Part shown: in pieces, positions 15,288-51,636 of the stretch | Position numbering within the stretch: position 1 is the stretch's first letter | How the letters are laid out: every line of letters begins with the position of its first letter | NCBI GenBank assembly: GCA_020137815.1 | Contig: CM035362.1 | Location: forward strand, 5,456,001-5,520,000 | Origin: Hormiphora californensis | Lineage: Eukaryota; Animalia; Ctenophora | Length of the DNA: 64,000 nucleotides | Reading direction: 5' to 3' | Notes under the pieces: generated by a model | Told to the model about the DNA's origin: nothing | Database searches by the model: none | The model's input: only the letters and a program-made list of their open reading frames with translations | Program-made: the position numbers and the translations under genes

Positions 15288-18200
15288 TCACACGTCCGTG
15301 CAGGGAAAAGTAGAGGAGGGCGTCGTTTGGGCAGTTGAACTTTCTGAGGAGTATAAATTGGGACGTGTTAAAAATACATACGTTCCCGTAATAAATCAAA
15401 TTGTAAAACAATCGAATGTTAAACAATCAAATTTAAACAAATTGTTTTAAACAATATTACTCGTTGGGTAGACCAATTAATTAATTCAAAGCCTCAAATT
15501 ACAATTTGAGGTTTTGGATCTTACTGAACACCCCCAAATTGGTCCAAAAAACCCCAAAACTCACCGGGTGATACTAAAAGTGGTGTAGTACAGGTCCCGG
15601 GGGTGTCAGGTGTCATCAGAATGATATCTGGGGAGGTCAAGGGGCAGCCTTTTCCTGGTTTACCGTTTCGTAGCATACATCCCCAGCAACTATCTCCTGT
15701 GATGAGGGGCAAGTTGGGGGAGCTGGGAGAGATATGTGTCGTATAATGGGGCAAGTTGGAGGAGCTGGGAGAGATATGTCGTATAATGGGATGAGGGGAG
15801 AGATATGTCGTATAATGGGATGAAGGGGCAAGTTGGGGAGCTGGGAGATATGTGTCGTATAATGGGATGAGGGGCAAGTTGGGGGAGCTGGGAGAGATAT
15901 GTCGTATAATGGGGCAAGTTGGGAGAGCTGGGAGAGATATGTCGTATAATGGGATGAGGGGAGATATGTGTCGTATAATGGGGTAATTTGGGGAGCAGGG
16001 AGAGATACAATGCAAGATGGGGGGAGGTGGCGGAGGGGAAATCAGTGAGTTAGGGCAGGGGTTCTCAAATGAGCACGTGCGACAGTGCGCCAAGATGGGG
16101 TCTGCGGTGCCATGCAGATGGTGCGGGATTATGGAATGGGGTACGGGGTTATGAAATGGGGAATGAGAGGATGGGGGTAAATAGGAATATAATGGGGGGG
16201 GGGGATCGAGAATGGGGTTATAATAGGGGGAATATACTATGTATATAGGGGTATAATATGAGTATGAAATTAGGGGGACCTGGGGGTGGAACAACTAAAA
16301 ACAGCATAAATTTTGTGTCAGGGAATATGATTTTGGGACAGATCAGTGTTAAATAATAATAGTTCTCCTTCTCTCGCACACATTTTATATACAGATCATG
16401 TGAAAACAATAGTTTCACTAAAAGAAAACTGTTCGATTGATATAATTCCCAGTGAAAGAAAGCTGCTTTTCCCTCGAGATACAAATGCTAGGTTATTCTA
16501 CTTTACACCAATTTGACACGCCATGATCGGGTTAAAGTGTGACTAAAAGTTTAAATATTCTTTCCTAAAGTCGTATTTTTTGAAGTTGTCACCCAAATGT
16601 CGAATTTTGTAATGATTTTTACTTCTTGATGCGTGCACCACACGTTAACATGTGATAGGCACGCAAAAACCAAGTGCACAAGAAGGGGGTGGGGTGACAA
16701 CATCAAAAAATCCGAGTGTTTAAGCCAAACAAGATAATGGGCCCGAAAGAAAGAATAGATGCTCACATAAACAAGAACACTCTTTTTGATTTAAAAAATA
16801 AAACTCGCATTCAGATCTCTCTCTTACTTACTCAAAAGTAAGTCTCTCTTTCTCTCTCTCTCTCTCTCTCTCTCTCTCTCTCTCTCTCTCTCTCTCTCTC
16901 TCTCTCTCTCTCTCTGTTTCTTCATTCTCTCTGTTTCTGTCTCTCTCAGTAAAATTGGAGTCCTCATCGCGTTATCAACACTCATATTTGGTGACCATGG
17001 TAACCATGGTAACCATAGCAACCATGGTAACACCCATATTTGGTACTCTAACTGAGCTCGTTTACCCTTATCCAAAATGAAGGGATAATAACGTCTTCCT
17101 CCAAAAAACACACACGCATCTGTCTCGATGGTAACCATGGTAACTGTGGTAACCATGGTAACTGCCACTCTCATATATTGTCTATAGCAGTGTAGTGTGA
17201 AGGGAGTCTACAGGTGATGCCTCCAGGCTTGATTCGCTTGCCCTCCAAGAAAGGAGACCCCCGTTTGATTGTAGGTCGAACTGCTTGCAACCCCAGCATG
17301 TCTCGGAGCCTAGAGGGTGAGAGAGAAGAGCGATAGAGCGAGGGTGTTTTTTGGAAAAATGAGGAGGCGGATAGATTGAGATGGACAGAAAAGTAGAGAA
17401 ACGGAAATAAAGAAATGACAGTTTATTTCATGAAAGTAATACAGTCGGACCCCGATTTATAGTCCGATTTTTAATGATGCGAACCGCTTGCACGCAAAAC
17501 AGAGCGTGGGAAAAGAGAGATAGATATAAATAGTAAGAGAGACGACTGACGAGTGATGCGCAGTGAAATGCTCTGATTTGCGTGCAAGCGGTTCGCTTTA
17601 TTAAAAACTTCCCCGGCCCCAATATACATATGTATAGGAAATTAACGGTATTTGCCCCCGATTTACCAGGCAAAACCCCTTCCCCCGAGCATCCCGGTTA
17701 ATCGGGGTCCGACTGATCAGACAACAGATAGGGAGACAATAGTTTTATGAACAGTTTTATGATCTTCCAGATTCCACCTTTTTCTCTTTTTCCCTCTCGT
17801 CTCTCCAGACTCTCTCTTTTTAAATTATACGTCTCGAGTTGATCTCTCCATTTCAGGTTTCATTTGGTGCATATATCGATAATAATATCTATCTCATTTT
17901 TTTACTTCTTTTTGTGTGAGGAAAAGTTACACTATTTGGGGACATCTCAAGAATGGCTAGTAAAAGAAGGGGACCTCCTCCCCTGAGTCTCGGACCAACG
18001 CCATTCTTCATCATTTTGATATGACTAAATTCAGATTTTTTAAATTTGTCACCACCCTTTTCGTGCACGGAATGTTTTTGCGTGTCACATCACCTGTTAA
18101 CGTGTGGAGTGCGAGTCAAAATTGATAAATTTCATATGCACGGTCATTTGGGGGTGACAACTTCAAAAAATCCGAATTTACCATATTAGCTAGTTTCTAG

Positions 18201-51200: not shown

Positions 51201-51636
51201 CTCTGGGCTAGTCGTTTTTAGAGACCAGTTACCAAACCTGAGGAATTATCAATGAGGTGAGGTAGTAATAATGAGGTATTAATGAGGTGAGGTATCAATG
51301 AAGGGAGGTGAATCCCTCCATATATCTCCACCACGGACGGTGTAGTCAGCCCTACACAGCTGATCCAGAGAAAGGGAGAAATGAAGTTTGATAACTTACG
51401 ATTGCATACACCAGGAGATACATCGTCCTTCCTCAATATCACTTATGTATCTATCAATCTCCTCAACTGCCTCAACTTTAAACTCGCTTATTTGAAGGCT
51501 GGGGGAGGATATTTCATGATATTAAACTTAATTTAAAGTGTGTGTTATCAACAACTAATACTATAAATAATGAACACACAATTACTGCGATAACTTACAA
51601 AAATATAAATGTTAGGATTTGTACAAAACTCATCAT
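15288..51636 (-). CDS. Single-pass receptor: signal peptide, Cys-rich box, ~5 FN3, TM, CxxC, TIR, CxxC and alternative tails
   Basis: GT-AG exons: 51636-51599, 51498-51400, 51237-51098, 50886-50790, 50494-50368, 50046-49966, [gap; candidate ~36938-36790], 34978-34835 (one extra A in an A8 run), 34588-34532, 32934-32812, 32685-32600, 32479-32414, 32234-32113, 29161-29025, 27298-27212, 26194-26062, 25852-25659, 22486-22385, 21736-21640, 20327-20222 (TM: GINVVGILVPILCILAIVVVLLCGFFYFFR), 20085-19991, 19406-19255, 19103-18956 and 18776-18657. These are followed by either 17309-17182 or 15696-15565 + 15343-15288. All junctions except across the gap are phase-compatible. FN3 motifs: VTGLRPNYDY, GLIPYTNYCISAVAYNKMGPGPS, PPSPSHGVITQYHVEY, NLKAFQEYMFEVCAVTDKGPG. 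Confidence 0.8.
15700..16005. repeat. Intronic minisatellite (gggagagatatgtcgtataatggg variants) abutting the acceptor at 15697
   Basis: Degenerate tandem units seen directly. Confidence 0.85.
18657..19406 (-). other. TIR domain (TIR_2/bacterial-type) encoded by three exons of the receptor
   Basis: WDVFICYVSEDTNYVIQLKEAFERENIEVFFAKDELSWGCQLHRVIN|EGLRDSKYGLVVLSKSFIEKSTQWTTSELSSLHSKSRLSDQNCILPIWK|GGITEVEVGAYDMTLVGIQAMKEEEMTCDLMAQELKKKL. Confidence 0.88.
21760..22045. repeat. Intronic minisatellite (ggttactaatggtaaccactgaatt variants) near the acceptor at 21737
   Basis: Tandem degenerate 11-14-bp subunits. Confidence 0.85.
22671..25439. mobile_element. ~2.8-kb non-autonomous DNA element with poly-G/poly-C termini and TIR ttccaacctattt..tgtacg; contains a 63-bp tandem array (~24010-24950) and a nested IR element
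   Basis: Gn-ttccaacctattt at the left end and aaataggttggaa-Cn at the right end. It interrupts the host repeat ggggagagggggttagttaaatac with agag(gg) duplicated. No transposase ORF. Confidence 0.7.
26205..27045. repeat. 32-bp intronic minisatellite (agagaggagggtggggagttagatggggtctg)n
   Basis: Tandem units starting about 10 bp from the acceptor at 26195. Confidence 0.92.
27441..29003. mobile_element. Foldback / long-TIR Tc1-mariner-type non-autonomous element (~750-bp arms)
   Basis: TA|cagggtgtcccatatattctgtggg ... cccacagaatatatgggacaccc. The arms are near-identical (the same 73-aa spurious ORF appears on both strands), with a short spacer at ~28200-28250. Confidence 0.9.
29862..30398 (+). 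CDS. Putative nested antisense intronless gene; Ser/Thr/Arg-rich 178-aa protein
   Basis: ATG ORF within a receptor intron. The internal DLSTCLV repeat differs only at third codon positions; RRKRK basic stretch. Confidence 0.4.
   Translation: MKSQFTTVLATMTFTAADSPTTATSSSFFGRRKRKPSSPSTPLSRKTTRIPRSRSCERTSVNHVTMATTTARSRIPTRSGEQRNRNRITNSPLPTSLPQSIVRNPTSATAVRVVSEKAYRIHKSRSTTDLSTCLVSTLRPSNTSDLSTCLVTPVRPAEMKTSGRGSKRVADWLRRVRV
30721..32073. mobile_element. Foldback element (~660-bp arms) inserted in a (GA)n microsatellite
   Basis: taggccagtcatatgacgt ... acgtcatatgactggccta, with the centre at ~31380-31405 and GA repeats on both flanks. Confidence 0.9.
34981..35122. repeat. 23-bp minisatellite (gaaggagggagatgtgagtggga)n at the acceptor of exon 34978
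   Basis: About six tandem units. Confidence 0.9.
36950..42660. repeat. Highly homogeneous 31-bp satellite (gggtcgagttaggaattgggaaagtgagaga)n, interrupted by T-run 38424-39128 and A-run 39129-40075
   Basis: Periodicity read directly. The homopolymer insert is probably an assembly artefact. Confidence 0.9.
45614..47145. mobile_element. Non-autonomous element related to the one nested at ~22873-23875
   Basis: Shared start cactggcaagtgccccggg, shared internal tcgatttatggggggtc repeats, and a related IR pair (46721-46810 vs 47060-47145; 23668-23725 vs 23820-23875). Confidence 0.6.
48500..49613. mobile_element. Degenerate long-IR DNA element with a Tc1/mariner-like right end
   Basis: ~48500-48793 is inverted at ~49246-49530. 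It ends gtgggacaccctg|TA, like the 27441 family. Confidence 0.65.

Follow-up and report, generated by a model that had tools for sequence, protein, structure and literature searches.

A ctenophore receptor gene of Hormiphora californensis joining fibronectin type III repeats and a predicted CATCH-like head to a TIR domain resembling bacterial enzymes

The window analysed here, a stretch of 64,000 nucleotides (nt) from the ctenophore Hormiphora californensis (GenBank assembly GCA_020137815.1, contig CM035362.1, positions 5,456,001 to 5,520,000; all positions below count from its first letter), harbors a receptor gene that is real and conserved in ctenophores. Splicing by coordinates between 15288 and 51636 revealed 26 coding exons on the minus strand (2,747 nt in total), whose product displays a signal peptide, a Cys-rich box (Cys-box), five fibronectin type III (FN3) domains, a single transmembrane (TM) helix, a TIR domain flanked by two CxxC motifs, and two alternative tails. 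Sequence comparison places the TIR domain with the bacterial AbTir NADases and not with the Toll/IL-1R type.

Gene model and ctenophore orthologs

The gene is organized as follows.

51599 to 51636, minus strand: exon 1, start codon (ATG at 51636) and signal peptide, aligning with ortholog signal peptides
51498-51400, 51237-51098 and 50886-50790, minus strand: exons 2-4, Cys-box with about ten conserved Cys, predicted to form CATCH-like paired helical hairpins
50494-50368 and 50046-49966, minus strand: exons 5-6, linker and first half of FN3-1, placed by splicing and ortholog alignment
34979 to 49965, minus strand: intron of 14,987 nt, expected site of about 50 FN3-1 codons, with satellite, poly-T/poly-A and garbled sequence
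34835 to 34978, minus strand: exon 7, interrupted by a frameshift of 1 nt and encoding the first half of FN3-2; 58-62% identity to proteins P0005 and P0002 over 26 amino acids (aa)
34588-34532, 32934-32812, 32685-32600, 32479-32414 and 32234-32113, minus strand: exons 8-12, in phase, within the FN3-2 to FN3-5 region
29161-29025, 27298-27212, 26194-26062, 25732-25659, 22486-22385 and 21736-21640, minus strand: exons 13-18, in phase, within the FN3-2 to FN3-5 region
20222 to 20327, minus strand: exon 19, single TM helix, the sole segment above 1.6 mean hydropathy (peak 3.4)
19991 to 20085, minus strand: exon 20, conserved juxtamembrane segment with the first CxxC (CQHC), 81-83% identical to orthologs
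19406-19255, 19103-18956 and 18776-18657, minus strand: exons 21-23, TIR domain of AbTir type, WxxxE catalytic motif in exon 22
17182 to 17309, minus strand: exon 24, alternative tail A, second CxxC (CWGC), C-terminus T-L-L; same tail in M. leidyi P0002 and in P0013
15696-15565 and 15343-15288, minus strand: exons 25-26, alternative tail B, second CxxC (CWGC), C-terminus T-D-V

All 25 acceptors end in AG, and 21 of 24 donors read GTAAG, GTGAG or GTAGG, compared with 3.7% of the 3,283 GT dinucleotides on the minus strand. Since the boundaries were partly picked by donor consensus, collinearity with full-length orthologs serves as the independent test. Exons 1-6 can be read without a stop for 194 residues, from the signal peptide through the Cys-box into FN3-1, of which they cover the first half, and exons 8-23 run in phase through the FN3 repeats, the hydrophobic helix, the CxxC segment and the TIR domain. 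The frame is completed by exon 24 (stop at 17182) or by exons 25-26 (stop at 15288), each carrying the second CxxC. An earlier note on this DNA had proposed about 25 exons in phase, starting with a signal peptide at 51636 and followed by a Cys-box, an FN3 array, one TM helix and a TIR domain. All these elements lie where it had placed them and both of its stops are true alternative ends, while the exon count rises to 26 and exon 7 turned out to be out of phase. When exons were scanned singly in Pfam, exon 21 scored as TIR_2 (E 4.5e-5), and exons 12 and 13 gave weak fn3 matches; 16 of 24 pieces gave no family at E<=1.

Using the first TIR exon as query, six proteins of 745-899 aa were recovered among seven candidates (80-86% identity), all of them annotated with fn3 plus TIR. 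Mnemiopsis leidyi ACHWQZ_G019122 and, from Bolinopsis, B. microptera LOC134824666 are among the members of the ortholog cluster. The spliced TIR corresponds letter for letter, as compared by eye, to H. californensis c13.g608 isoforms i1-i3 in the PMC11797021 supplementary alignment, which also contains the TIR of the M. leidyi ortholog. The window model could be aligned end to end with four orthologs. Orthologs whose fn3 scores lie at E 1e-13 to 1e-17 are collinear with it over exons 8-18. Identity to these four is 24-29% in the Cys-box, 24-25% in the FN3 region and 37-43% in the TM helix, rising to 81-83% in the juxtamembrane segment and 76-79% in the TIR domain, i.e., 76-83% for the cytoplasmic part versus 24-29% for the ectodomain. 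N-glycosylation sequons number 16 outside and none inside in the window protein, and 13-16 before and 0-1 after the TM helix across the alignment, the distribution expected for type I topology.

Tail B has a counterpart ending in T-S-V in P0007 of M. leidyi and P0011 of B. microptera. As M. leidyi possesses both tails (P0002 and P0007), the alternative ends are conserved between these lineages. Every tail ends in S/T-x-hydrophobic, which is a class I PDZ-binding motif. For tail use in H. californensis, reads gave no cover of exons 22-26. A B. microptera protein of 344 aa, P0010 (LOC134824670), comprises only the Cys-box and the first two FN3 domains and is near-identical to the N-terminus of the full-length gene; it might stem from a partial duplication, act as a secreted decoy or result from faulty assembly.

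We consider it very improbable that FN3 and TIR exons come from two different genes or owe their union to mis-assembly. The 15-kb intron between the Cys-box exons and the remainder is of low quality and no read set came from this individual, both of which leave room for such a join. However, the single-chain orthologs (M. leidyi, B. microptera and two on contigs of 3-4 kb) are collinear end to end, so the union in one protein, as the earlier note had proposed, is found in full-length orthologs. In addition, contigs of run X1 (84-89% identical; a related sequence other than this allele, its RNA status being guessed) break off at the exon 20 and exon 21 acceptors; as read by eye, the overhanging sequence codes for the end of a TM exon and for that of exon 20. 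Running from the TM exon to exon 20 and from exon 20 to the TIR exon, they support the TM-to-TIR joins in a relative. A scan of genome contigs with a single protein as query gave no match.

The one damaged region concerns FN3-1 and FN3-2. In exon 7, homology to the orthologs follows one frame up to an A8 run (34912-34905), the longest homopolymer across all 26 exons, and another frame beyond it. FN3-1 lacks its second half, about 50 residues, between 49966 and 34978, where the earlier note had already suspected one or more unresolved exons. Neither a profile hidden Markov model search, which found nothing above background, nor a frameshift-tolerant scan recovered them; the best score of the latter was 36.8 against a background maximum of 35.8, and of four known exons used as controls two scored clearly above background, one marginally and one not at all. 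A look-alike near 36841-36790 was rejected (score of 29.2 within background, wrong phase, running into a stop), as was a frame-restoring alternative acceptor inside exon 7, which would discard the best-conserved strands. The missing codons are likely due to assembly damage, because the intron holds a 31-bp satellite, homopolymer tracts (705 T and 947 A) and homopolymer-rich garbled stretches. Between 36948 and 42661, about 130 copies of this satellite are broken by a tract of 705 T and then 947 A, which likely arose as an artefact of the consensus from long reads.

Alternatively, the FN3-1/FN3-2 exons may truly have decayed in H. californensis, leaving a four-FN3 exon-skip form as the working protein. 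Besides the frameshift and the lost codons, this reading draws on the fact that exon 6 joins exon 8 in frame, yielding stop-free open reading frames (ORFs) of 804 and 824 aa, and on Mnemiopsis, where isoform KAL5247159.1 omits the same segment and the same skip model occurs (P0001). We regard it as unlikely, as exon 7 is among the best-conserved exons of the ectodomain, its frame breaks inside the A8 run, and the neighboring intron is visibly mis-assembled.

Relationships and residues of the TIR domain

Comparison of the cytoplasmic fragment with PDB sequences revealed seven bacterial entries at E 8e-15 to 4e-12, while plant TIRs followed at E>=0.056 and no animal TIR, including Toll/IL-1R, was among the 12 matches listed at E<=1. 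The best solved relatives are the enzymes BtTir, AbTir, TcpB and PdTIR. In Pfam, SEFIR gave no match at E<=10, and TIR_2 (43.5 bits, cut-off 28) and TIR scored instead; a cytoplasmic SEFIR domain, which the earlier note had named among the findings that would overturn its view, is ruled out by this TIR_2 score above the curated cut-off. The bacterial affinity of the domain, more telling than this, had escaped that note. The best PADLOC model was PDC-S66 (E 5e-35), with ThsB1 also scoring (E 6e-19), and the best NCBIfam model was a retron TIR, far below its whole-protein cut-off.

Among the best 150 of 1.84 billion representatives, six belong to this ctenophore family, and the remaining 144 are 28-52% identical over the TIR domain alone. 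Rows of the ctenophore family were removed before each census of relatives. A hydrophobic segment occurs in 5 of the 144, the TM-CxxC-TIR-CxxC layout in none, and fn3 in none of the 45 scanned with Pfam. We infer a prokaryotic origin of these relatives, since they interleave in the tree with 477 relatives found among 602 pattern-matched stretches in GTDB genomes (80 of which were kept as a prokaryote locus set) and since 117 plasmid records also carry TIR relatives. A search of long proteins, with a profile built mainly from prokaryote-like rows, found fn3 in at least 6 of 84 matches, all of the ctenophore family among the matches listed. In a tree calculated by a quick method (136 rows, 146 columns), the seven ctenophore rows form one long branch (2.15, support of 100) among prokaryotic rows. 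Because of this long branch, the lack of a resolved sister and the presence of only one eukaryotic comparator, the tree does not show horizontal transfer.

AbTir numbering was taken from the Manik preprint (10.1101/2022.05.07.491051) and PMC11374754 and mapped by eye. The WxxxE motif with its catalytic Glu is present in all seven ctenophore rows, as are S143, G174, L177, V193, K202 (a column not interpretable in a second alignment), W204, T205, E208 and W227. According to the Manik preprint, S143, L177, K202, W204, E208 and W227 contact the NAD mimic in AbTir by side chain or at the phosphate, and W204 favors cyclic products (10.1101/2022.05.07.491051). All named substrate-contact residues are kept (7/7). 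Overall, 15 of the 19 positions conserved to at least 95% in the 144 relatives are retained in all seven rows, and the Cys found at the S140 position likewise occurs in 64 of the 144.

Ectodomain and proposed signaling

Cys-box and FN3 domains fill the ectodomain of about 650 residues. In the Pfam scans, orthologs revealed fn3 in two to three stretches each; the number of five is based on the alignment and predicted strands, as two to three of the five beta-sandwiches score individually and the others come from the alignment or a low-confidence model. The full-length AlphaFold model (pLDDT 45.5) was used for secondary structure and generic FN3 matches alone. With the family profile, the best solved matches of the array were LAR-type phosphatases, titin, contactins and neogenin. 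No leucine-rich repeat (LRR) family was found in Pfam scans of six and five orthologs, and no immunoglobulin (Ig) family was listed in scans of orthologs where fn3 passes its cut-off.

For the Cys-box, sequence searches in PDB and ESM Atlas revealed no relative outside the ctenophore family, Pfam gave no family at E<=10 for any of seven rows, including the Cys_box and WAP domain of anosmin-1 (remote homology being possible), and a protein collection returned only four matches among 3,888 candidates, all of them family members. A model from the seven-row alignment is mostly helical (pLDDT 74.5). Its exhaustive structural search against 48,161 chains placed Sevenless first (9bfp_A 206-304, Z 8.0, rmsd 3.9, 82 residues aligned at 17% identity), with the next row at Z 5.5 and chicken ROS1 24-107 ninth (Z 4.7). 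For a helical domain, a Z of 8 counts as modest and may reflect a common helical arrangement, and no sequence method detects the likeness. Foldseek hits on the model, obtained independently, were weak (E 2.7), with Sevenless in three of five rows. We consider it likely that the predicted fold is a CATCH domain homologous to that of Sevenless/ROS1, because Z drops sharply after the first row, identity there exceeds that of the other rows near the top of the ranking, and the domain has the same position ahead of the FN3 domains. As published, the Sevenless CATCH domain (residues 231-279) is formed by two helical hairpins stapled by disulfides (PMC11743138), and in ROS1 it forms, together with the first two FN3 domains, an arm that moves on ligand binding, with ligand-driven clustering (PMC13100127). 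The suggestion in the earlier note that the ectodomain resembles that of a receptor kinase gains backing from this predicted domain at its tip.

In the mechanism that we propose, the CATCH-FN3 arm would bind an outside ligand, leading to clustering of the receptor, and the two invariant CxxC motifs flanking the TIR domain might together bind a single zinc and keep the domain close to the membrane. Neighboring TIRs could then build one active site between them and cleave NAD+, the probable product being cyclic ADP-ribose (cADPR), with 2'cADPR as the candidate by analogy with AbTir, while PDZ proteins may place the two tail isoforms via their C-termini. Such a receptor might play an immune role. 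AbTir activity requires self-association (10.1101/2022.05.07.491051), which a clustering receptor would therefore supply. Whether clustering indeed lets this bacterial-type TIR cleave NAD+ appears to us evenly balanced.

Several observations weigh against such an output. D167, the beta-B Asp and presumably the equivalent of SARM1 D594, is replaced by Ala in all seven ctenophore rows, while it is Asp in 142 of 144 relatives and 80 of 80 prokaryote loci. Likewise, the filament-interface residues of AbTir are exchanged in all seven (S176 to Glu/Gln, R178 to His, D182 to Asn, Y207 to Ser/Thr); the first three are present in 74, 77 and 79 of the 80 loci, respectively. AbTir itself needs D167, S176, R178 and D182. 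D167A was reported to inhibit AbTir (PMC11374754) and D594A to lower SARM1 activity (PMC8266388), and the window protein keeps only 6 of 14 AbTir positions reported to lower activity when mutated. In favor of an output, many Toll-type rows, presumably with TLR4 itself, carry His in the D167 column, so an Asp at this position is probably not a universal requirement. Against it, the seven rows agree in 105 of 149 TIR columns, so that an invariant Glu tells little by itself. As given in the Hurieva preprint, no more than 12 of 61 animal TIRs bearing the Glu showed activity in E. coli and TLR2 is inactive in spite of its Glu, whereas the TIRs of TLR4 and two invertebrate TLRs make cADPR (10.64898/2026.04.20.719644). 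Furthermore, ESM Atlas features rank mollusc and chordate TIR clusters nearest (0.89-0.90), which is a lead only and speaks against a bacterial reading. A hint of an immune role comes from M. leidyi, in which four TIR2 genes are described as up-regulated on Vibrio re-exposure, one of them with FN3 repeats ("gene 3") (PMC11797021). This gene is probably the ortholog of the window receptor, the probable equivalent being ACHWQZ_G019122 / evm.model Scaffold_10...400. Altogether, the residue pattern reads as an intact pocket with a rewired assembly surface; it would suit an enzyme gated by receptor clustering, and also a drift toward a scaffold, given the inhibitory effects of D167A and D594A.

As a possible alternative, which we hold tentatively, the same receptor would carry a non-catalytic or nearly dead TIR whose clustering nucleates a MAL/MyD88-like TIR assembly. 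Just as tentatively, this assembly would recruit cytosolic TIR proteins, some of them perhaps enzymes, as well as PDZ scaffolds. The geometry of AbTir filaments is the same as that of MAL/MyD88 scaffolds (10.1101/2022.05.07.491051), the base rate of activity cited above points in the same direction, and M. leidyi offers potential partners, namely three TIR-only genes induced alongside the FN3 gene among 15 TIR2 genes (PMC11797021) and at least two TIRs that are AbTir-like by eye and lack the catalytic Glu. In contrast, all named substrate-contact residues are kept across the long branch, the tree in PMC11797021 contains no MyD88-like ctenophore TIR, and enzyme and scaffold roles can coexist, as TLR4 suggests. 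In the supplement of PMC11797021, evm.model Scaffold_8...105 and Scaffold_10...767 represent such Glu-less AbTir-like M. leidyi TIRs, which are candidate adaptors or dead paralogs.

A further question concerns the input rather than the output and overlaps with both the enzyme and the scaffold reading: the receptor could conceivably, though with slightly less weight again, serve cell-contact or developmental signaling in a ROS1/Sevenless- or LAR-like manner instead of microbial sensing, which would go with either chemistry of the TIR. In Sevenless/ROS1, CATCH and FN3 serve as modules for host ligands (PMC11743138, PMC13100127), and the matches of the FN3 array to LAR-family phosphatases, contactins and neogenin, PDZ-type tails that fit junctions, and a single ortholog cluster per source without sign of expansion point the same way. 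The fast evolution of the ectodomain (24-29% identity) beside a fixed inside and the response of an FN3+TIR2 gene to Vibrio re-exposure (PMC11797021) speak against it; neither is decisive.

In its most specific form, our proposal would be that ctenophores fused a ROS1/Sevenless-type ligand arm to a prokaryotic anti-phage TIR enzyme, giving a Toll-like layout of their own, in which an NAD+ cyclase at the surface is gated by ligand and produces, within an animal cell, a signal of bacterial/plant type, e.g., 2'cADPR, with a zinc clamp and swappable PDZ tails for tuning; we put this forward as a rather doubtful conjecture. Ctenophores, the sister lineage to all other animals according to PMC11797021, are reported to lack canonical Toll-like receptors (TLRs), as the earlier note had pointed out for its possible host; for M. 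leidyi, the same paper gives no canonical TLR. MyD88-like TIRs are reported missing as well, and the receptor is a conserved, constitutively built candidate for surface sensing. If it is active, the ectodomain-TM-TIR design would have arisen independently in this lineage with a prokaryote-type enzyme as output; if it is inactive, it records a bacterial-type TIR enzyme turned scaffold. In either case, the predicted CATCH fold would extend beyond ROS1/Sevenless.

The separate class of TIR receptor envisaged in the earlier note holds insofar as no characterized family was found, while the pairing of FN3 and TIR2 itself is already in print, in one sentence on Mnemiopsis in a 2025 paper (PMC11797021). 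The portions consulted of that paper contain no analysis of TM helix, CATCH, CxxC, tails, bacterial affinity or catalysis; its Figure 3 or supplementary tables might show a TM helix or identify gene 3. The portions consulted of papers on sponges and cnidarians (PMC6208332, PMC8242945, PMC8260672) and of a choanoflagellate survey (PMC6040629) describe Ig-TIR, LRR-TIR and kinase-TIR forms and no FN3-TM-TIR form, and a word search in the main text of the Hurieva preprint (10.64898/2026.04.20.719644) revealed no mention of ctenophores or FN3. The searchable literature, most subscription papers being outside its scope, gave no description of the gene beyond PMC11797021, and nowhere in it did we find the anatomy of the receptor, its CATCH head, a TIR of bacterial type, the two CxxC motifs or the conservation of the alternative tails.

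Neighboring features and comparison with known systems

Besides the receptor gene, the window harbors on the minus strand a tandem pair of similar ORFs without introns (2393-4000 and 4941-6554), each about 537 codons long and with an N-terminal BTB domain (E 6e-5 and 6e-6). An element resembling long interspersed nuclear elements lies at 7656-11928, minus strand, with an ORF1-like frame (10573-11928) that gave no Pfam match and, after it, endonuclease and reverse transcriptase split over two overlapping frames. On the plus strand, a reverse-transcriptase ORF (52850-54937; RVT_1, E 3e-28) lies about 1.2 kb upstream of the receptor start codon, and an exon of a GT2 glycosyltransferase was detected at 62770-62862 (E 0.0016), with more exons probably from about 55600 onward. 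Foldbacks are found within introns at 27443-29003 (763-nt arms, 99%, 35-nt spacer) and 30744-32040 (634-nt arms, 97%, 29-nt spacer); a third one lies at 48562-49476 (246-nt arms).

Compared to known systems, the ctenophore receptor shares parts with several of them. Toll-like and IL-1 receptors have the same succession of signal peptide, ectodomain, one TM helix and cytoplasmic TIR, and some TLR TIRs make cADPR (10.64898/2026.04.20.719644), whereas the ctenophore protein has no LRR or Ig match in Pfam; it is likely an independent assembly of the TLR/IL-1R layout. Its cytoplasmic TIR_2 domain without a SEFIR match also differs from IL-17 receptors. These combine an FN3 ectodomain, a single TM helix and a cytoplasmic domain of the TIR superfamily (SEFIR), a layout common to the ctenophore receptor. 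With ROS1 and Sevenless, it shares type I topology and an N-terminal Cys domain, predicted to be CATCH-like, ahead of FN3 domains, but it has five of these instead of nine, a TIR in place of the kinase, and no YWTD propellers (no Pfam match and no room in orthologs of 884-903 aa). Similarity to AbTir, BtTir, TcpB (BtpA) and PdTIR spans the whole domain (E ~1e-14) and includes WxxxE and the substrate-contact residues, while these enzymes are soluble and activated via coiled coils or filaments, and the ctenophore TIR is attached to a TM helix, flanked by two CxxC motifs and changed at D167, S176, R178, D182 and Y207. From SARM1 and MyD88 it is set apart as a TM protein whose orthologs revealed no ARM-SAM or death domain match in Pfam. 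M. leidyi "gene 3" likewise combines FN3 repeats and TIR2 in a ctenophore (PMC11797021). Altogether, the receptor works like a Toll/IL-1-type TM-TIR receptor yet stands outside the TLR, IL-1R, IL-17R and ROS1 families.

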